Shown here in pieces: positions 39,788 to 58,317 of a stretch of DNA of 64,000 nucleotides. Within the stretch, counting starts at the first letter, position 1, and each line of letters begins with the position of its first letter. The notes beneath the pieces are model-generated. The model did not search any database, was not told where the DNA came from, and saw only the letters and a list, made by a program, of their open reading frames with translations. Source of the DNA: Escherichia coli (lineage in GTDB: Bacteria > Pseudomonadota > Gammaproteobacteria > Enterobacterales > Enterobacteriaceae); the NCBI RefSeq assembly GCF_003018255.1, contig NZ_CP027440.1; one strand, written 5' to 3'. Both the position numbers and the translations under genes were made by a program.

Positions 39788-41185
39788 TTACCCCTTAAAC
39801 GTTAACCACGGTCGAAATCTGACCGCTGGCTGAATTAATCCGGCTTCTTGTTGGGCTTCGATAACCGGACCAATATCTTTATAAGCCGCTGGCGCTTCTT
39901 CAAAACGTCGTTCTTCGCGCAATGTGACGCATTGCCACGGCAGCGTTGACTCTTCAGTCGCGCGTGAGCGCATGGCCTGCCGACGCTGGCTGCGTCCTGC
40001 TCCGTGACTGCATGACCACAGCCACTCCGGGTTGCCGCAACCTACCGCAAGCCACGAATAATCGCCCATTGAACCGGGGATTAACGCCAGATTGCCCACT
40101 CGTGCCGGTGTTGCGCCTTTGCGATGAATATTCATTTCATGCTCGCGAAGGATGATGTTATGTGGCACATCCACCACCAGATGCGAATTGTCCTGATGAA
40201 AGAGATTGGCAAGACATACGCGCACCATTTCGGCAATTGTGACGCGATTTAACCATGCGTAACGCGCCGCCATTCCTATCGCTTGTAGATATTCCTCCGC
40301 CAGTCCGCCTGCCAGACCATATAACCCGCTTTGTGGATGTTTATGTCCGGTGGGCCATTCAGCACGGGCGCGATCCATCCAGCGTCTTCCGACGTAAAAG
40401 CCAACATCTCGCGATCCACTGTGGATCATCACCACAATATCGCCTGTTTTCAGCCCTTGTTGCCAGGCTACATGGCGATCAACCACGCTATCAACGACCT
40501 GAAGTTCAATAAAATGATTACCTGAACCCGGCGTACCCAGACAAGGATCGCGGAGTAATGCGCGGTCCGTTGCCTGCAGGGCGGGTGGGGCATAACGCGA
40601 ATGACTGTTATGCTCGTTAAGCCCAATGCAGCGGTCAATCTCTTGTACCATTCGGGGGATATTCGTGCGTATCCAGAGACCTTCTGATGGCAAGGTCGAC
40701 ACGCAATCTGCCGGTCCGCCATCAAAAAGCGCGGTGAACGCCTGTGCGGATAACGGAACATCGCGCTCATTTTGCAGTAGCACTTGCGTTAACCGCTGAG
40801 CGATGACGTCTTTATGCGCTTCGGCTTGCTCAAGTGTTAATCCGGTCGTCAGCAGCCGCATGCCACAAGAAATATCGGTGCCGATGGCGGCGGGAATGAC
40901 TAAATCCGGCGTTGAGGCCACCACCGCGCCAACGGGGACGCCATTGCCGGGATGAAAATCTGGCGTCGCGCACGTCTGGCGCACATAACCTGGGTGGTCT
41001 GGTAGCTTCACTTCTGCAAAATCAAGCAGTTGTGTTACTGCTTTTTCTTCCAGCGGCAGTTCGTCCGGCAGCAGTACGCGGGCACTGGCACCTGATGGAC
41101 GAGATAATGAAACAATATTGTTGGCGCGGGAAAGTTGGATCCCTTTGCGCAGAAAGGCTTTATCAAGCCTTGAAAGATGATGCAT
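39788..41185 (-). CDS. RtcB-family RNA 3-prime-phosphate ligase paralog (465 aa), orphan
   Basis: Conserved RtcB motifs: TPDFHPGNG, IPAAIGTDISCGMRLL, GTPGSGNHFIELQ, MIHSGSRDVG, IPGSMG, CSHGAGR, AYKDIGPVIEAQ; N-terminus about 30 aa longer than canonical RtcB; start codon uncertain. Confidence 0.85.
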   Translation of the reverse strand: MHHLSRLDKAFLRKGIQLSRANNIVSLSRPSGASARVLLPDELPLEEKAVTQLLDFAEVKLPDHPGYVRQTCATPDFHPGNGVPVGAVVASTPDLVIPAAIGTDISCGMRLLTTGLTLEQAEAHKDVIAQRLTQVLLQNERDVPLSAQAFTALFDGGPADCVSTLPSEGLWIRTNIPRMVQEIDRCIGLNEHNSHSRYAPPALQATDRALLRDPCLGTPGSGNHFIELQVVDSVVDRHVAWQQGLKTGDIVVMIHSGSRDVGFYVGRRWMDRARAEWPTGHKHPQSGLYGLAGGLAEEYLQAIGMAARYAWLNRVTIAEMVRVCLANLFHQDNSHLVVDVPHNIILREHEMNIHRKGATPARVGNLALIPGSMGDYSWLAVGCGNPEWLWSCSHGAGRSQRRQAMRSRATEESTLPWQCVTLREERRFEEAPAAYKDIGPVIEAQQEAGLIQPAVRFRPWLTFKG

Positions 41186-41490
41186 AACGCTGTCCTGAAA
41201 TATAGACGTTAAACAACCCCCTGTATGGCGAGGGTAATTTTGTCTTTCCGGTCAGCAGCCAGCAAAAGGGAAAGAAAACGCGCGTAGTGTATGTGGCGAT
41301 AGCAAGTGTTACAAGTGGTAAATCTGGCTTATTGTTAAAGAGGAATTATCTTTTGTGAAGTCTTTTAAGGCCATGACTCATTCAATTTAACCGGACATAG
41401 ATAATATATAACATAGGGTATCTAAATTTATCATTGTATACTTGTCATAATTCAAGTTGCATGTGCTGCATCGATGTTCGCTCACCCAGG

Positions 41491-42060
41491 TCACTTACTT
41501 ATGTAAGCTTCTGGAAATTCATTATTTGTTCCCTTCCTGCAACTTGACTTATTTAGAGTATATTCATGTATACACATCGAGATTTCAGCCAGCAGACGCG
41601 CATCTGGCGTGCCGTGGCGGATCTGTAGCGGTTTTTGCAGAGTTTCGGTGAGGCGACGGCAAGCTGCAACGCCGTGGTTAACGACCGGTAAACCGTTCAG
41701 TTTAGAGGTTCCGGCTTCGATGGATTTTTTAATCCCTACAGCCGCTTCTTCGTACCGATTCAGACGGGTATATGCATCGATGGTGCTCGGCAGCAGATCG
41801 CACTCTTCTTGTAGTGTTTTCAGTAGTTCGATGTGTTCGTCCATCAGCGCCACACCTGCGCGCGGTTGGCTAAGGGTTTTACCTTCCTTGTCTGCTTTCA
41901 ACAGCGCAAGAGAGAAGCGTTTATGCTCAGGAATGGTTTGTTGGTATTTAACGCCATCTTCAAAGTTTTCAACATCCTTGCCGGTTTCCCAGGTTTTCAG
42001 TACCTGTTGCCGCTCGGTCATGAATTCGTCATGGGTTAATTTCTTATTTCGAAGTTCCAT
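41491..42060 (-). pseudogene. glmE: Glutamate mutase E (epsilon) subunit, truncated: 189 codons versus about 480 in intact homologs
   Basis: [33 protein letters not shown]...[20 protein letters not shown]...[15 protein letters not shown]...[13 protein letters not shown] resembles the GlmE N-terminus; similarity ends near codon 165, then 24 unrelated codons and stop. Confidence 0.75.
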
Positions 42061-42078
42061 TGATTGCAGCCTTAATTG

Positions 42079-43467
42079 TTATAGGGTTAAGCATTGAATA
42101 CTGGTGCGCGCGGCGGCCAGCGGATCGACTCTGGCGACGTTTGCCAGCAGTGGTAATAGCCCCCGGGAATCGCGGTAATATTCAAATTCGGTCGGTAAGA
42201 GAATGCGTTTACCGTCGTCGTTTAACTCGCGGTATTTCAACCAGTGATGCATATCGAACTGACTGGCACGCGAGAGCCATCCGCCGGATCCGACGACTTT
42301 ACGCACGGTTGTCAGGTCACGTCCCATCTGTAAATCGACATTGCCGACGCAGGTGCAGACCTCTTTTTTGGTGCCCGCATGTCTTTCGGTGGCATAACCC
42401 ACACACAGTCCGGCCAGGACGGTATCGAAATATTTTTCTTCTGCATTCGCGGGTAAGTAGTCGGGATGAGCGACTAGATGACGGAGGTAATGATAAAAAG
42501 CGTCCAGCTGTGCGGGTTGCTGAGCAAAATTCACATTGACTAACTCTTTCGCACTTTCACCAACCACCATTGCCGAGACGCGCATTCCCAGATCTCCTTC
42601 CACCGTCCGTTTTACGAAGGGTTCCGGTACGCCATGTAAAACAGTGTCGGGCGAGAGCGTGTTGGCACTGGCGGAATAGACATCGGTGGTTGCGCCACCC
42701 ATGTCGATCAGCATGAACTCTTTCCAGCTGTGATCGACATTACTGATTGCCTTAACCAGTTCAAAGACTGTCCACGGTGTCGGCATTGGTTCTTCGCCTG
42801 TTTTATCAACAACGACATCCAGCCCTTTCCCTTTAACGATGCGTTTAAGGAATATGTCGCAGATAGCCTGGCGTGCAGCTAAAGGGTTCGGATGGTCAAG
42901 ATCGGGCAGAACGTTGTCGACGATGGTCAGGTCTTTATGCCCGAGGATCTCCTGCACCTCGTCCTGAATATCCCGGTTTCCGGCATAAATAATGGCGCAG
43001 TCGAGTTTGGATTCTGCCAACACACGGGCGTTATTCAGTCCGTAGCTTTCTTCTCCGCCATCGGTGCCGCCGGTGAACAAGAGAATATCGGGCTGCGTTT
43101 CTTCCAGTGCCTGGATATCACGGCGGTTCAGCTTGTAGGCGTAAGATTGCGCAATTTTAGCACCCGCAGAGTGAGCGGTTACTTTCGCGGTTTCCAGGGT
43201 GATAGAAGGCACCAATCCCATTGCGGCAACCGCCAGCCCACCTTTGGCAGAGGAGGAATACTTCAATGCAACCTCACCACTGTTTAACAGGGGGAGGGCA
43301 TCATCTACGTTTAACACCTGGTCCAGGCTGGAGAAAAACCCCTTCGCCAGATGATGGGTGGTGGTTGGGGTCAGTACGTGGTTAACCAACGTTAACGCGT
43401 CCCCCTCCCGGGCGAAGAGGGCTGCTTTGGTCCACGTCGATCCAATATCGACAGAGACGATTTGCAT
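42079..43467 (-). CDS. glmL: Glutamate mutase accessory protein GlmL/MutL-like (462 aa)
   Basis: [18 protein letters not shown]... actin/Hsp70-like ATPase fold; translationally coupled to glmS (TGATG overlap); placed between glmS and glmE as in clostridial operons. Confidence 0.75.
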   Translation of the reverse strand: MQIVSVDIGSTWTKAALFAREGDALTLVNHVLTPTTTHHLAKGFFSSLDQVLNVDDALPLLNSGEVALKYSSSAKGGLAVAAMGLVPSITLETAKVTAHSAGAKIAQSYAYKLNRRDIQALEETQPDILLFTGGTDGGEESYGLNNARVLAESKLDCAIIYAGNRDIQDEVQEILGHKDLTIVDNVLPDLDHPNPLAARQAICDIFLKRIVKGKGLDVVVDKTGEEPMPTPWTVFELVKAISNVDHSWKEFMLIDMGGATTDVYSASANTLSPDTVLHGVPEPFVKRTVEGDLGMRVSAMVVGESAKELVNVNFAQQPAQLDAFYHYLRHLVAHPDYLPANAEEKYFDTVLAGLCVGYATERHAGTKKEVCTCVGNVDLQMGRDLTTVRKVVGSGGWLSRASQFDMHHWLKYRELNDDGKRILLPTEFEYYRDSRGLLPLLANVARVDPLAAARTSIQCLTL

Positions 43468-43916
43468 CAGATTGCCTCTTCAAGAATACGAGTATCAACG
43501 TCATGACGTTGGTTGATATCGTGGGCCATCAGCTGACAAACATCTTCTAAGTCATGACTTGGGGCAAAGACGCGATCAAATCCCATCTCTTTGAATTTGG
43601 TTTCCACGTCAGCGAAGTCATGTTTTCCGACCACCAGGTTACCGCCCACATAGAGCAGGATGTCCCCCAGTCCACGCTCGATGCAGCGTTCGCGCATGCC
43701 CAGACAGTCGATATCGCCATGCCCATAGATAGAGGAGACGACAATCGCGTCAGCACCAGTTTCAATGGCAGCATCAATATATTCGTCCTGGCTGACCATT
43801 ACGCCCAGATTAATAACTCTGAAGTCATGGTTGCTAAAAACGCGGTCCAGAACTTTATTGCCTACTGCATGGCAGTCCGCGCCAATAACGCCAATCACAA
43901 GTGTTGCTTTCTTCAT
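43467..43916 (-). CDS. glmS: Glutamate mutase S (sigma) subunit, B12-binding (149 aa)
   Basis: [24 protein letters not shown]... with the DxHxxG cobalamin-binding motif; AGGA RBS 7 nt upstream of this ATG (the listed ORF extends 21 codons further upstream). Confidence 0.8.
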
Positions 43917-44463
43917 GGGTAATCCTTTGTAAGACAGAGAGTAAAATAAGTTACACACGTCGTATTTATGGCCGCTCATAACGGCACAGGTTTAATATCA
44001 CAGGAGTGTCTTTATCTGACCGTAATGTTGCAATTGATCTATTTTCAAAATGTCTTTCGGGAAATGATTGTTTAAAGTGTGTTTTCAAATTCTCATGTTA
44101 ATTCAGTGTGTTATGTCAACTAATGTCATGAATGTTAAATTTTTAAAATTAACTTGATTTGATGTATTGAGATAATTGTGATCAACTTCTAATTTGCATT
44201 TTAGTGATATGGGGTTAGCCATGAGTAAATGCATTTCATAAAAGTTAAGTCGAATTTCACTGCAATTCATCTCTGCTTAATGTAAAAATAATGTTGAAAA
44301 TAACAAATAATTAATGATTCATGCGAATTATGACCTTTGTTAGCTCTTTTGATTTTTCGTAAAAAAGAAAAGTACATGAAGGTGCTACCAGTACGAGAAA
44401 CGTTAATCAAAAGTTTTATTACGTCTGGCAATAACGCAGGCCATTTTTCGCGACAGGAGGGAT

Positions 44464-44886
44464 TTAATCAGTATAATCCTCATACAATAGGTCAGGATTT
44501 ACAGAACCGTTAACGGGGTTTTGGTGTTGAAATTTAGAAATGGTGGAGTCAATCAATGAAGACAGTATCGAAAAAATGACTGTGTCAGAATTAATTTCAA
44601 TTAATCCTTCTCGTTGTTGACCAAAAAAGATATTTATCTTGATTTCATTTGTACTACGGAAATCAATATGTAGTAATTTTTGATCGCTGAGATTTTCTGT
44701 TTCATAAATGTTTTTGGCGATAGTCGGATGTATTGATGCCAGACATCTGCTCAGATAAGCCAGATCCTTTAGGGAACACCCCGCTGAGTAGAGGATGTCA
44801 GAGAATTTTTGTGTGTCAACTGTTGGCTCTGAAGCGTATGTTGCATTGACTGGAAGGGTGTTGAAGGAGATTTGAGATGGGATCAT
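44464..44886 (-). CDS. Hypothetical protein (140 aa), small and acidic, low GC
   Basis: Intact ORF MIPSQISFNTLPVNATYASEPTVDTQKF...; no recognisable motif; sits in an AT-rich segment of the island. Confidence 0.5.
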   Translation of the reverse strand: MIPSQISFNTLPVNATYASEPTVDTQKFSDILYSAGCSLKDLAYLSRCLASIHPTIAKNIYETENLSDQKLLHIDFRSTNEIKINIFFGQQREGLIEINSDTVIFSILSSLIDSTISKFQHQNPVNGSVNPDLLYEDYTD

Positions 44887-44966
44887 TATTTAAATCTTTC
44901 CGTGAGTAATAAAAATTAATCCCCGGGCATTGTTTAGTAATATTTGCCACAGGGGATATATAAAAA

Positions 44967-45911
44967 TTAAAGTATTTGATTGGCATCGGTTAACTGATCA
45001 ATAACCAGTGCCAGATTGGTAAACATTTTGAAAAAGCGATACTGGCTCGGAATATCTCTTTCAAAGACGAAACATTCAATGTCATTGTTTGAAAAATAAA
45101 GGACTAGTGATGCTGATTCGTCAGGAAAAATATGGAAATATATCTGGTTACCAGAAGGAGGATAGTCCAGAAGAAGGGTATCTTTGCCCGTCACATACCT
45201 GTTGTGGTCGTGGATGCTGCGCTCACACTTCATCAGAGGTGTCATGATACTCATGTATTCATCTGATGTTAATATATTAAAATCACCATCCATTTTAAAG
45301 AAACGATAAAGTAACAGTACATCCTCTTGCGTAACCGGTTCGTTTGTTTTTAGAGGGAAATAAGTGGGAACCAGAAGATGAGGTTCTAATCTATTTTGTT
45401 GAGCGCTATAACTAAATTTGAACATAAATTCCGGATCGCTCATCAATTGAGCGACATAATTATGCCTGGCTTCAAAAATTTTAACTTTTATCAGGTTAAA
45501 TAAGTCTGTTTCGTCATCCTGTATTAAAAGACATTGGCCATAGCAGCCAGGCTTTTTTTCATTATAAGCAGAAACGGTTATTCTGTCAGGAGTGTCAACG
45601 TTATATCCAAAAGCCAGATAGTGACCTTCCTCATCGAGATTTGTTTCCAGGTTATTTAAATTCATCACATGAAGTGTTTGCAATGCTGATTCAATGAGCT
45701 GTTGACTCTCTGAGGTAAATGTTTCGCGCTGCGTTGTATAAAGTGTATCGATTCCAACGACTATCCGATGTGGGTCAAGGATGGCGGCAATCATCTTTAT
45801 TACCTGCACAGTCATGGGTGATGTCATTGATTCTTTATCTGTTTTTAGAGGATCATTAGATGGCCAACCTGAGAAGCGATTGACAGCAGAACTGATAATA
45901 TCAGGACTCAT
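44967..45911 (-). CDS. Hypothetical protein (314 aa), low GC
   Basis: Intact ORF MSPDIISSAVNRFSGWPSNDPLKTDKESM...; GAGG RBS 8 nt upstream of ATG; no signal peptide or TM helix evident; no family recognised. Confidence 0.6.
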   Translation of the reverse strand: MSPDIISSAVNRFSGWPSNDPLKTDKESMTSPMTVQVIKMIAAILDPHRIVVGIDTLYTTQRETFTSESQQLIESALQTLHVMNLNNLETNLDEEGHYLAFGYNVDTPDRITVSAYNEKKPGCYGQCLLIQDDETDLFNLIKVKIFEARHNYVAQLMSDPEFMFKFSYSAQQNRLEPHLLVPTYFPLKTNEPVTQEDVLLLYRFFKMDGDFNILTSDEYMSIMTPLMKCERSIHDHNRYVTGKDTLLLDYPPSGNQIYFHIFPDESASLVLYFSNNDIECFVFERDIPSQYRFFKMFTNLALVIDQLTDANQIL

Positions 45912-54856: not shown

Positions 54857-55648
54857 ATGAGCAGTAACTTCAGACATCAACTATTGAGTCTGTCGTTACT
54901 GGTTGGTATAGCGGCCCCCTGGGCCGCTTTTGCTCAGGCACCAATCAGTAGTGTCGGCTCAGGCTCGGTCGAAGACCGCGTCACTCAACTTGAGCGTATT
55001 TCAAATGCTCACAGCCAGCTTTTAACCCAACTCCAGCAACAACTCTCTGATAATCAATCCGATATTGATTCCCTGCGCGGTCAGATTCAGGAAAATCAGT
55101 ATCAACTGAATCAGGTCGTGGAGCGGCAAAAGCAGATCCTGTTGCAGATCGATAGCCTCAGCAGCGGTGGTGCAGCGGCGCAATCAACCAGCGGTGATCA
55201 AAGCGGTGCGGCGGCATCAACGACGCCGACAGCTGATGCTGGTACTGCGAATGCTGGCGCGCCGGTGAAAAGCGGCGATGCAAACACGGATTACAATGCA
55301 GCAATTGCGCTGGTGCAGGATAAATCCCGCCAGGATGAAGCAATAGTGGCATTTCAGAATTTCATCAAAAATTACCCTGATTCAACTTACCTGCCAAACG
55401 CCAATTATTGGCTGGGTCAGTTAAACTACAACAAGGGTAAAAAAGATGATGCGGCGTATTATTTTGCTTCGGTAGTGAAAAACTATCCGAAGTCACCGAA
55501 GGCTGCAGATGCGATGTTTAAAGTCGGCGTCATCATGCAGGACAAAGGTGACACCGCAAAAGCGAAAGCCGTATACCAGCAGGTTATCAGTAAATACCCT
55601 GGTACTGATGGCGCTAAACAGGCGCAAAAACGTCTGAACGCGATGTAA
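54857..55648 (+). CDS. cpoB: Cell division coordinator CpoB (YbgF), TPR protein (263 aa)
   Basis: MSSNFRHQLLSLSLLVGIAAPWAAFAQ signal peptide, coiled coil, TPR repeats. Confidence 0.95.
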   Translation: MSSNFRHQLLSLSLLVGIAAPWAAFAQAPISSVGSGSVEDRVTQLERISNAHSQLLTQLQQQLSDNQSDIDSLRGQIQENQYQLNQVVERQKQILLQIDSLSSGGAAAQSTSGDQSGAAASTTPTADAGTANAGAPVKSGDANTDYNAAIALVQDKSRQDEAIVAFQNFIKNYPDSTYLPNANYWLGQLNYNKGKKDDAAYYFASVVKNYPKSPKAADAMFKVGVIMQDKGDTAKAKAVYQQVISKYPGTDGAKQAQKRLNAM

Positions 55649-55812
55649 TGCATAACACACGACCAGAAGTCGCATTATTTCTGGTCGTGTCGTGCGAATC
55701 ATAAGCAGTTGAGTGATCTGCATCGAAATTTTTGTTGCGCTCAAGTCTGAAATCAGTAATATATGCCGCCGTTGCCACGGGATATCAAACAAACCGAAAG
55801 CAACGAAAAAGT

Positions 55813-55888
55813 GGGTCGTTAGCTCAGTTGGTAGAGCAGTTGACTTTTAATCAATTGGTCGCAGGTTCGAATCCTGCACGACCCACCA
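55813..55888 (+). tRNA. lysT: tRNA-Lys (anticodon UUU)
   Basis: GGGTCGTTAGCTCAGTTGGTAGAGCAGTTGACTTTTAATCAATTGGTCGCAGGTTCGAATCCTGCACGACCCACCA. Confidence 0.95.
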
Positions 55889-56023
55889 ATCGCTAAGGTG
55901 GAAGCGGTAGTAAAACGTGAAGGATAACGTTGCGTCAGCAACGGCCCGAAGGGCGAGACGAAGTCGAGTCATCCTGCACGACCCACCACTAACCTAGTTA
56001 GTTGTAGTATCCAGCGTAGTATC

Positions 56024-56099
56024 GGGTGATTAGCTCAGCTGGGAGAGCACCTCCCTTACAAGGAGGGGGTCGGCGGTTCGATCCCGTCATCACCCACCA
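56024..56099 (+). tRNA. valT: tRNA-Val (anticodon UAC)
   Basis: GGGTGATTAGCTCAGCTGGGAGAGCACCTCCCTTACAAGGAGGGGGTCGGCGGTTCGATCCCGTCATCACCCACCA. Confidence 0.95.
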
Positions 56100-56101
56100 C
56101 C

Positions 56102-56177
56102 GGGTCGTTAGCTCAGTTGGTAGAGCAGTTGACTTTTAATCAATTGGTCGCAGGTTCGAATCCTGCACGACCCACCA
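56102..56177 (+). tRNA. lysW: tRNA-Lys (UUU)
   Basis: Identical to the lysT sequence. Confidence 0.95.
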
Positions 56178-56228
56178 CTAATTACGGTGGGTTCGGTGGA
56201 AGTAGTTTGTAGTATTCAGCGCAGTATC

Positions 56229-56304
56229 GGGTGATTAGCTCAGCTGGGAGAGCACCTCCCTTACAAGGAGGGGGTCGGCGGTTCGATCCCGTCATCACCC
56301 ACCA
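56229..56304 (+). tRNA. valZ: tRNA-Val (UAC)
   Basis: Identical to the valT sequence. Confidence 0.95.
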
Positions 56305-56307
56305 CTC

Positions 56308-56383
56308 GGGTCGTTAGCTCAGTTGGTAGAGCAGTTGACTTTTAATCAATTGGTCGCAGGTTCGAATCCTGCACGACCCACCA
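56308..56383 (+). tRNA. lysY: tRNA-Lys (UUU)
   Basis: Identical to the lysT sequence. Confidence 0.95.
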
Positions 56384-56529
56384 GTTTTAACATCAAACTC
56401 AGATGTTAAGCGTGAAGGATAACGTTGCGCCAGCAACGGCCCGTAGGGCGAGCGAAGCGAGTCATCCTGCACGACCCACCAATTTTAAAGATTGGTTCCG
56501 AGTAGAAATCTTTCAGGTAACACCCGTAT

Positions 56530-56605
56530 GGGTCGTTAGCTCAGTTGGTAGAGCAGTTGACTTTTAATCAATTGGTCGCAGGTTCGAATCCTGCACGACC
56601 CACCA
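56530..56605 (+). tRNA. lysZ: tRNA-Lys (UUU)
   Basis: Identical to the lysT sequence. Confidence 0.95.
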
Positions 56606-56638
56606 TCCTGAATGATTAAAGCAGCATAATCCCGCAAG

Positions 56639-56714
56639 GGGTCGTTAGCTCAGTTGGTAGAGCAGTTGACTTTTAATCAATTGGTCGCAGGTTCGAATCC
56701 TGCACGACCCACCA
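56639..56714 (+). tRNA. lysQ: tRNA-Lys (UUU)
   Basis: Identical to the lysT sequence. Confidence 0.95.
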
Positions 56715-57063
56715 ATGTAAAAAAGCGCCCTAAAGGCGCTTTTTTGCTATCTGCGATACTCAAAGATTCGAACCTGCAGCAGGTTCGAGTTGAGCGCAGC
56801 GAAACAACGGAGCCGCTCGCGGCGACGGCCCGTAGGGCGAGCGAAGCGAGTTATCCTGCACGACCCACCAATGTAAAAAAGCGCCCTAAAGGCGCTTTTT
56901 TGCTATCTGCGATACTCAAAGATTCGAACCTGCAGCAGGTTCGAGTTGAGCGCAGCGAAATAACGGAGCCGCTCGCGGCGACGGCCCGTAGGGCGAGCGA
57001 AGCGAGTCATCCTGCACGACCCACCAATGTAAAAAAGCGCCCTAAAGGCGCTTTTTTGCTATT
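56715..57063 (+). repeat. Tandem direct repeat, 156-bp period, about 2.2 copies; each unit carries a terminator hairpin and a tRNA-Lys 3-prime-end fragment
   Basis: Units 56715-56870 and 56871-57026 differ at about 3 positions; a partial third copy (terminator part) follows at 57027-57063; each unit ends ...ATCCTGCACGACCCACCA. Confidence 0.9.
56719..56747 (+). terminator. Rho-independent terminator after lysQ (repeated at about 56875 and 57031)
   Basis: AAAAAAGCGCCC-TAAA-GGCGCTTTTTTG hairpin with T run. Confidence 0.85.
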
Positions 57064-57273
57064 CAGGCATCCTCAATTTCACTTTGTAACCTGATGACAT
57101 CTTCAGAGCTTACTTTGCAAGCAACTCTACGTCGGTGGAATTAGGCGTAATTCGAGTGACTTTTCCCCACCATTCGACTATCTTGTTTAGCATATAAAAC
57201 AAATTTCACCGATAACAGCGAATATTACGCTCATGTCGGTTTTAACGTTAAGCCTGTAAAACGAGATGGTAAG

Positions 57274-58317
57274 ATGAGCGTGATGTTTGATCCAGACACG
57301 GCGATTTATCCTTTTCCCCCGAAGCCGACGCCGTTAAGCATTGATGAAAAAGCGTATTACCGCGAGAAGATAAAACGTCTGCTAAAAGAACGTAATGCGG
57401 TGATGGTTGCCCACTACTATACCGATCCCGAAATTCAACAACTGGCAGAAGAAACCGGTGGCTGTATTTCTGATTCTCTGGAAATGGCGCGCTTCGGTGC
57501 AAAGCATCCCGCTTCTACGTTGTTAGTCGCTGGGGTGAGATTTATGGGAGAAACCGCCAAAATTCTCAGTCCGGAAAAAACAATTCTGATGCCGACACTT
57601 CAGGCTGAATGTTCACTGGATCTCGGCTGCTCTGTTGAAGAATTTAACGCATTTTGCGATGCCCATCCCGATCGTACTGTCGTCGTCTACGCCAACACTT
57701 CTGCTGCGGTAAAAGCGCGCGCAGATTGGGTGGTAACTTCAAGCATTGCCGTCGAACTTATTGATCATCTGGATAGTTTGGGTGAAAAAATCATCTGGGC
57801 ACCCGACAAACATCTGGGGCGTTACGTGCAAAAACAGACGGGCGCAGACATATTATGCTGGCAGGGTGCCTGCATTGTGCATGATGAGTTTAAGACTCAG
57901 GCGTTAACCCGCTTGCAAGAAGAATACCCGGATGCTGCCATACTGGTGCATCCAGAATCACCGCAAGCTATTGTAGAGATGGCGGATGCGGTCGGTTCCA
58001 CCAGTCAACTGATCGCTGCTGCGAAAACATTGCCACATCAGAGGCTTATTGTGGCAACCGATCGGGGTATTTTCTACAAAATGCAGCAGGCGGTGCCAGT
58101 TAAAGAGTTACTGGAAGCACCAACCGCAGGTGAGGGTGCAACCTGCCGCAGCTGCGCGCATTGTCCGTGGATGGCCATGAATGGCCTTCAGGCCATCGCA
58201 GAGGCATTAGAACAGGAAGGAAGCAATCACGAGGTTCATGTTGATGAAAGGCTGCGAGAGAGGGCGCTGGTGCCGCTCAATCGTATGCTGGATTTTGCGG
58301 CTACACTACGTGGATAA
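57274..58317 (+). CDS. nadA: Quinolinate synthase A (347 aa)
   Basis: [63 protein letters not shown]... Confidence 0.97.

Follow-up and report, generated by a model that had tools for sequence, protein, structure and literature searches.

The lysT operon and its repeats

The window analysed here is a 64,000-nt stretch of an Escherichia coli genome (contig NZ_CP027440.1). Between cpoB (54857–55648) and nadA (57274–58317) it carries an array in which ARAGORN finds exactly seven tRNA genes (55813–56714), the number of intact tRNAs that a first-pass annotation of the sequence had given. Their order is Lys, Val, Lys, Val, Lys, Lys, Lys, with five tRNA-Lys(UUU) and two tRNA-Val(UAC). The interval 55650–57300 is 100% identical to that of E. 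coli JNE23-011 (NZ_AP045067.1), a complete circular genome. The array is interspersed with, and followed by, short and long copies of an element that we identify below as a tRNA-linked repeat (TLR), and three copies of a terminator hairpin:

55813..55888, plus strand: lysT, tRNA-Lys(UUU) (ARAGORN; Rfam tRNA, 79.2 bits)
55889..55988, plus strand: short TLR/RtT-like element of 100 nt in the lysT–valT spacer, ending with the 18-nt tRNA-Lys 3' copy (RF00391, 60.6 bits; repeat families D3, D7)
56024..56099, plus strand: valT, tRNA-Val(UAC) (ARAGORN)
56102..56177, plus strand: lysW, tRNA-Lys(UUU), followed by a 51-nt spacer without the TLR of K-12 (ARAGORN, K-12 comparison)
56229..56304, plus strand: valZ, tRNA-Val(UAC) (ARAGORN)
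56308..56383, plus strand: lysY, tRNA-Lys(UUU) (ARAGORN)
56384..56481, plus strand: short TLR/RtT-like element of 98 nt in the lysY–lysZ spacer (RF00391, 54.4 bits; repeat families D3, D6, D7)
56530..56605, plus strand: lysZ, tRNA-Lys(UUU), followed by a 33-nt spacer without the TLR of K-12 (ARAGORN, K-12 comparison)
56639..56714, plus strand: lysQ, tRNA-Lys(UUU) (ARAGORN)
56719..56745, plus strand: intrinsic terminator hairpin T1, AAAAAAGCGCCCTAAAGGCGCTTTTTT (fold; same sequence in K-12)
56745..56870, plus strand: long TLR, the body of 156-bp unit 1 (unit 56715–56870) (RF00391, 47.7 bits; PGAP 'RtT sRNA')
56875..56901, plus strand: terminator hairpin T2, copy of T1 (repeat analysis)
56901..57026, plus strand: long TLR, the body of 156-bp unit 2 (unit 56871–57026) (RF00391, 47.8 bits; PGAP 'RtT sRNA')
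57031..57057, plus strand: terminator hairpin T3, a further copy, closing a partial third unit at 57027–57062 (Tandem Repeats Finder, repeat analysis)

A 24-nt motif, CGAGTCATCCTGCACGACCCACCA, has four copies outside the tRNA genes, at 55965–55988, 56458–56481, 56847–56870 (with one T variant) and 57003–57026. Its last 18 nt, ATCCTGCACGACCCACCA, are found in all four elements and also form the 3' end of every one of the five tRNA-Lys genes. The short elements had been noticed by the first-pass annotation as pieces of about 70 bp (55917–55988 and 56412–56481); these are real, and are the distal parts of the 100-nt and 98-nt elements listed above, which begin at the base immediately after lysT and lysY. 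Repeat analysis aligns 55910–55957 with 56405–56452 at 92% identity over some 48 nt. The long elements, on the other hand, come after lysQ and a terminator. Here Tandem Repeats Finder recovers the two tandem 156-bp units already noted, as an array at 56697–57062 that holds 2.3 copies of a 156-nt period matching at 99% (score 718); the two full units mismatch at two positions, and direct repeats of 54 nt, comprising tRNA end and terminator, bracket each long TLR body.

The hairpin AAAAAAGCGCCCTAAAGGCGCTTTTTT, which had been read as a terminator in each unit, is present three times and folds at −19.1 kcal/mol (z = −5.75): its stem GCGCC-CUAAA-GGCGC is lengthened by A/U pairs and followed by UUUUUU. 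A consensus terminator scan found none of the three plus-strand terminators, probably because their A tract pairs with the U tract; what it picked up were hairpins on the minus strand, within the TLR cores. Our terminator call is therefore based on folding and on the K-12 literature, in which an identical sequence is treated as the experimentally studied Rho-independent terminator of the lysT and valU operons (PMC4176162).

The elements are tRNA-linked repeats of the Rfam RtT family

Scanning the window with Rfam yields four RF00391 (RtT) matches that exceed the gathering score of 45 bits: 55820–55988 (60.6 bits), 56315–56481 (54.4 bits), 56745–56870 (47.7 bits) and 56901–57026 (47.8 bits). 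The alignments of both short copies take in part of the upstream tRNA, that at 55820–55988 using part of lysT; in those of the long copies, outer-helix pairs are marked as non-canonical. These Lys-type scores, 47 to 61 bits, lie barely over the threshold, as against 133–137 bits for the copies at tyrT. Sub-threshold Rfam matches to YrlA (44 bits against a gathering score of 69), Plastid-ycf2, AgrB and sraL were set aside as by-products of tRNA-like sequence or of the terminator.

The same scan of K-12 MG1655 gives five RtT matches in the lysT operon, after lysT, lysW, lysY, lysZ and lysQ, one more after lysV and four at tyrT–tyrV, the locus that defines the family. RtT RNA corresponds to rttR of the tyrT–tyrV operon, reportedly described by Bosl and Kersten in 1991. 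The rtT RNA cut from the tRNA precursor is a discrete processed RNA of 171 nt. As summarized by Stenum et al. 2021 (PMC8144298), TLRs were first described by Egan and Landy in 1978, and the catalogue of Rudd (1999) counts 22 of them at ten K-12 loci, with one to five at each. [quoted passage not shown]

The elements of the window are of the same kind: like those of K-12, they follow directly downstream of a tRNA and their last 18 nt are the tRNA 3' end. K-12 TLRs carry both an RtT match and the core motif described below, which counts in favour of this identity. RefSeq (PGAP) labels the two long elements 'RtT sRNA' in the identical genome NZ_AP045067.1. The elements are thus already known and already annotated, which the first-pass annotation had missed, and what we report is the rediscovery of a named family. 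Only the occupied positions distinguish the two operons: K-12 has five TLRs (four short and one 156-bp unit), while the window has four (two short and two tandem units), there being none after lysW and lysZ and the unit after lysQ being doubled. Both operons have seven tRNAs.

Anatomy and predicted fold

Alignment of the window and K-12 copies shows that the Lys-short, Lys-long and Tyr elements share a 3' core of about 65 nt. The alignment has 35 invariant columns, which fall mostly in GCAACG(G/A)CCCG.AGGG.GA...GA.T.ATCCT and in the terminal CCACCA. The first part of the core consists of two hairpins, CGTTGC-NNNN-GCAACG and GCCC-GNA-GGGC, and the second of GAG, a short variable stretch and CGAGT(C/A). 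After the core, the 3' end is formed by ATCC of the T loop, the tRNA-specific 3' strand of the T stem, the 3' strand of the acceptor stem and CCA.

The 5' arm approximates the reverse complement of this tRNA-derived copy. In the short Lys elements CGTGAAGGAT stands opposite ATCCTGCACG; in the long Lys units the tRNA-Lys T arm recurs as its exact reverse complement, GATTCGAACCTGC, which makes a palindrome with a direct GCAGGTTCGA; and the tyrT units repeat the arrangement with tRNA-Tyr sequence. A TLR RNA is accordingly predicted to fold back, its 5' arm pairing with the 3' copy of the tRNA end. In the predicted folds of the short elements an outer helix, CGUGAAGGAU/AUCCUGCACG, closes both core hairpins (−35.5 kcal/mol and z = −2.54 for the lysT–valT element; z = −3.52 for the lysY–lysZ element), whereas the outer helix of the long units is more weakly paired. 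Across the elements, folding z-scores span −2.4 to −3.5.

The RtT units of tyrT–tyrV thus share with those of the window the core, the fold-back architecture and the presence of tandem copies behind the last tRNA. They differ in length (178 bp, compared with 156 bp for the units downstream of lysQ) and in having arms of tRNA-Tyr rather than tRNA-Lys sequence. Relative to them, the inner hairpin and the GAGCG..AGCGAGAG segment are missing from the short Lys copies, and each long Lys unit holds its own terminator. The layout behind lysQ is also precisely that of rrA, rrB and rrF, which are TLRs situated between the dual terminators T1 and T2 of rrnA, rrnB and rrnD (PMC8144298): in both cases the 3' end of a gene is followed by a terminator, the repeat body, a copy of the gene's 3' end and a second terminator. 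Unlike the elements studied here, rrA, rrB and rrF follow 5S rRNA, carry GGA motifs and bind Hfq and CsrA (PMC8144298).

Spacers, units and tRNA genes vary among E. coli strains

We compared the cpoB–nadA interval among complete E. coli genomes with a query of 1.5 kb of unique sequence from each side, which matched 5,425 of 5,426 genomes. Flanks alone were used because BLAST with the whole interval or with the two-unit junction merges overlapping pieces, so that single-unit loci reach 100% coverage. Sixty genomes were sampled evenly along the ranking, and in 59 of them the match spans both flanks. Among these 59 the interval falls into 17 length classes, from 3,682 to 4,549 bp. Architectures were parsed from 14 fetched representatives, giving 17 parsed lysT loci in all, and vary as follows:

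lysT–valT spacer: 135 or 35 nt
lysW–valZ spacer: 149 or 51 nt
lysY–lysZ spacer: 146 or 48 nt
lysZ–lysQ spacer: 132 or 33 nt
156-bp units after lysQ: 0, 1 or 2
tRNA genes in the operon: 6, 7 or 8

The arrangement is therefore far from uniform in E. coli, and the suggestion that tandem copy number may differ between strains is borne out. The 17 parsed loci hold from 0 to 6 TLR copies per operon; two E. coli genomes (L015 and L016) have an operon entirely without TLRs, and MC4100 has eight tRNAs owing to an extra 208-bp module made of a lysine tRNA and a TLR. In each of the long spacers, the sequence distal to the 18-mer stays the same with or without a TLR, and the gain or loss of a TLR is hence exact between two copies of ATCCTGCACGACCCACCA. 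Since all four combinations of presence and absence are seen at TLR positions 1 and 2, the events are recurrent or have been shuffled by recombination.

The two-unit state of the window is rare: it occurs in 2 of the 59 flank-sampled genomes and in 3 of 40 retrieved by BLAST with the two-unit junction, one of these three having it at lysV. In strain Yu5 the two units differ at a site other than those that distinguish the units of the window, and share a variant that the window does not have, which points to duplications that are independent and recurrent, or else homogenised.

The same core follows other tRNAs in Gammaproteobacteria

We scanned one genome per species with a 20-nt core, GCRACGGCCCGNAGGGCGAG, which is present at at least 120 loci. 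For 107 of the matches listed, a tRNA on the same strand precedes the core by no more than 450 nt, with nine tRNA/anticodon types represented: Lys-UUU (44), Arg-ACG (34), Pro-CGG (14), Pro-UGG (6), Tyr (4), Gln (2), Arg-CCG (2) and Ser-UGA (1). Of these 107 elements, 89 close with 18 nt or more that exactly repeat the 3' end of the preceding tRNA. The hosts of the tRNA-adjacent core, again among the matches listed, are Enterobacterales and other Gammaproteobacteria of many genera, and a Klebsiella genome (L030) has three tandem units. Those listed from G+C-rich actinobacterial genomes are not close to any tRNA and appear fortuitous.

Duplex energies favour pairing of a 5' arm with the 3' arm of its own element over pairing with arms from other tRNA types (−14.8 versus −11.6 kcal/mol; Wilcoxon p = 3.5e-8, a value that overstates independence as the sequences are related). 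This preference is evident for four types (Arg, Gln, Tyr and Lys) and absent, by the same measure, for Pro and Ser. An ungapped count of complementary positions between the arms, which has low power, gives 9.6 versus 8.6 of 13.

Origin, turnover and possible function of the repeats

The reading that we hold with considerable confidence is that the tRNA-Lys fragments are TLRs (RtT in Rfam) whose modules are lost or doubled by repeat misalignment or unequal exchange, and which are passive by-products of the operon. The identity and anatomy of the elements, the exact junctions and the differences between strains are shown by the data; recombination as the mechanism, and the lack of a required function, are inferred. 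The 18-nt repeats formed by each tRNA-Lys and its TLR, the 54-nt repeats and the identical 76-nt tRNA-Lys genes would all be substrates for replication slippage or unequal homologous exchange. Such misalignment or exchange would precisely delete or duplicate whole modules, and would account for all the architectures seen. The exact junctions at TLRs that are present or absent at every position support the proposal, already made in the first-pass annotation, that unequal recombination has been at work. Exact junctions are also what a site-specific recombinase would leave.

What becomes of the repeats in the transcript may be judged from experiments on K-12, where a single RNA of more than 1100 nt covers the lysT cluster and stops at the terminator that follows lysQ (Agrawal et al. 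2014, PMC4176162). RNase P strips the terminator and then cuts each tRNA at its 5' end, exonucleases trim the long 3' trailers, and few stable intermediates of the precursor are seen in the wild type (PMC4176162). By analogy, the short TLRs would be transcribed inside a lysT precursor of more than 1.1 kb and discarded when the 3' trailers are trimmed, and the long TLRs, lying beyond the first terminator, would be transcribed only through read-through, like the TLRs that lie between T1 and T2 of three rRNA operons (PMC8144298). We regard the TLRs as dispensable because they are freely lost between strains.

The first-pass annotation had offered a second origin for the fragments, as remnants of past integrations at tRNA-Lys. 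On this account they would be attL/attR-type scars of phages or islands, or miniature non-autonomous elements that a tRNA-targeting integrase would mobilise in trans. Many tyrosine integrases duplicate the stretch of a tRNA gene that reaches from the T loop to CCA. The elements do resemble att sites in being direct repeats of just this 3' portion, and their presence or absence is exact at the repeat boundaries. Yet, as the annotation itself had noted, no integrase accompanies them: RefSeq annotates neither an integrase nor any mobile-element gene in the identical genome for 14 kb to each side, where the only genes are tol-pal, cpoB, nadA, pnuC, zitB, ybgS and aroG, and there is no cargo. Nor is the insert of about 80 nt foreign. 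In place of sequence specific to each target, the interval between the repeats is a conserved structured core of some 80–120 nt across tRNA types, whose 20-nt motif recurs in many genera behind Lys, Arg, Pro, Tyr, Gln and Ser tRNAs, each with its own 3' end. Moreover, the elements stand serially within one operon and in tandem behind a terminator, and the same locus has undergone rearrangements of whole tRNAs (6–8 copies) of the sort expected from general homology-driven exchange. We therefore consider an integration scar very unlikely. An assembly artefact as the source of the 156-bp duplication is more improbable still; short-read assemblers may miscount tandem repeats of this size, but the two units differ at two positions, which argues against an expansion made by the assembler, and the window is identical to a complete circular genome. 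Two units are also found in independent complete genomes, both here (L014, H132) and at lysV (H129), in addition to the three of Klebsiella. It is just as hard to believe that the repeats encode small Arg-rich peptides resembling the Tpr encoded at tyrT, or the product of the 146-aa ORF at 56654–57094. Arg-rich ORFs of 26–28 aa do lie inside the elements, and tpr is annotated within the tyrT repeat of K-12. Against this, the ORFs of the window begin at GTG or TTG and by eye have no correspondence to the Tpr sequence, the 146-aa ORF starts inside lysQ and runs through the repeats, neither it nor the small ORFs has a Pfam match at cut-off, and the elements are freely deleted between strains.

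A function at the level of RNA deserves more weight, although we still think it unlikely. TLRs might act as regulatory or sponge RNAs once freed from the precursor, or in cis as structures that guide tRNA-Lys 3' processing, with loss and gain tuning that function. This reading is compatible with misalignment and unequal exchange as the source of the variation, and does not exclude it. The fold-back is conserved, its arms follow the sequence of the host tRNA in four types (Arg, Gln, Tyr and Lys), the folding z-scores are uniformly negative (see above) and the family is widespread in Gammaproteobacteria. The binding of Hfq and CsrA by the three rRNA-linked TLRs was seen in vitro (PMC8144298), and RtT-family RNAs have been detected on Northern blots in Actinobacillus (PMC4986893). 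On the other side, every TLR position of the lysT operon is polymorphic and some E. coli do without any TLR in it. For the 19 tRNA-linked TLRs CsrA binding is predicted not to occur (probability <0.01; PMC8144298), and, according to the account given in the same paper, the stringent-response role and phenotype originally ascribed to rtT were retracted by their own authors. The scarcity of stable intermediates in wild-type K-12 (PMC4176162) and the position of the long copies behind a strong terminator argue in the same direction. A related idea, to which we give somewhat less credence, is that TLR arms are actively kept matched to the host tRNA, either by copying or homing that uses the T loop-to-CCA segment as both target and template, or because a fold-back RNA that engages tRNA-processing enzymes is under selection. 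If copying or homing were at work, the present/absent polymorphism of the spacers would come from insertion and excision that still continue, and not from deletion alone. Passive turnover by misalignment or unequal exchange remains our preferred reading; the matching of the arms could nevertheless be a sign of selection on RNA structure, and hence of a function.

Implications

As a discovery the repeats carry little weight: their hallmark has been known since 1978, they are catalogued both as TLRs and as RtT in Rfam, and the NCBI pipeline annotates them. The remaining question is how the TLR family at large arose and what it does, and concerns nothing particular to the window. The cross-species data, with the same core behind nine tRNA/anticodon types, an ending in the 3' end of the host tRNA in 89 of the 107 elements listed and an often complementary 5' arm, restate this question rather than answer it. 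For E. coli itself, the cpoB–nadA interval needs care in short-read assemblies, and the lysT operon emerges as a structurally unstable locus, at which tRNA-Lys gene dosage and spacer length consequently differ between strains.

Hairpins and an RNA-like match at the end of the lysT operon

Behind lysQ, the last tRNA-Lys gene of the operon, the window carries three copies of a terminator hairpin:

56719-56745, terminator hairpin, first copy
56875-56901, terminator hairpin, second copy
57031-57057, terminator hairpin, third copy

Since its GC stem is preceded by an A6 tract and followed by a T6 tract, the hairpin is symmetric, and from its sequence it could terminate transcription in both directions. 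A simple terminator scan detected none of the three copies on the plus strand. In E. coli EC45, the long tRNA-linked repeat (TLR) of the unit following lysQ is 148 nt rather than 156, with an 8-bp deletion (GATTCGAA) located within the palindrome TCGAACCTGCAGCAGGTTCGA.

We also obtained an Rfam match to YrlA (Y RNA-like) at 56550-56690, scoring 44 bits and thus below the gathering score of 69. The match begins in the 3' portion of lysZ, crosses the 33-nt spacer and reaches into the 5' portion of lysQ; most likely it is an artefact produced by two neighbouring tRNA halves.

Elsewhere in the window, the region upstream of cydA (about 39788-45900) contains a gene of the RtcB family, two hypothetical genes, and the methylaspartate mutase genes glmS and glmL together with a pseudogene for a truncated subunit E, as annotated in E. 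coli JNE23-011 (NZ_AP045067.1, 1391727-1397850).

Variation of the locus within K-12 and tandem arrays in other genera

The lysT operon of E. coli K-12 MC4100 (NZ_HG738867.1; positions 2329-2820 of comparison locus L009) has eight tRNA genes. Relative to K-12 MG1655, MC4100 carries an additional 208-bp module consisting of a tRNA-Lys and a TLR, and the locus is therefore variable even among K-12 laboratory lineages. The lysQ-nadA spacer of MG1655 contains a 29-bp insertion (about 2925-2955 of comparison locus L002) that is absent from the window (about 57135); it is flanked on both sides by the direct repeat ATTAGGCGTAA and includes CATCCTGCAC, a sequence similar to the beginning of the TLR/tRNA-Lys 3' end.

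In Enterobacter sp. Bisph1 (L021, 700-2000) and at two further comparison loci (L105 and L136), tRNA-Arg(ACG) genes stand in arrays of three or four. Each gene is followed by its own TLR terminating in the tRNA-Arg 3' end, with a period of about 265-290 nt, an arrangement that parallels the E. coli Lys array but differs in tRNA type. In Klebsiella sp. BIGb0407 (L030, 1315-1646), a tRNA-Lys is followed by three Lys-type units in tandem, each containing the terminator-like GCGCCCTAAAGG, with the same 156-nt period as in E. coli; the tandem layout is thus not confined to E. coli.
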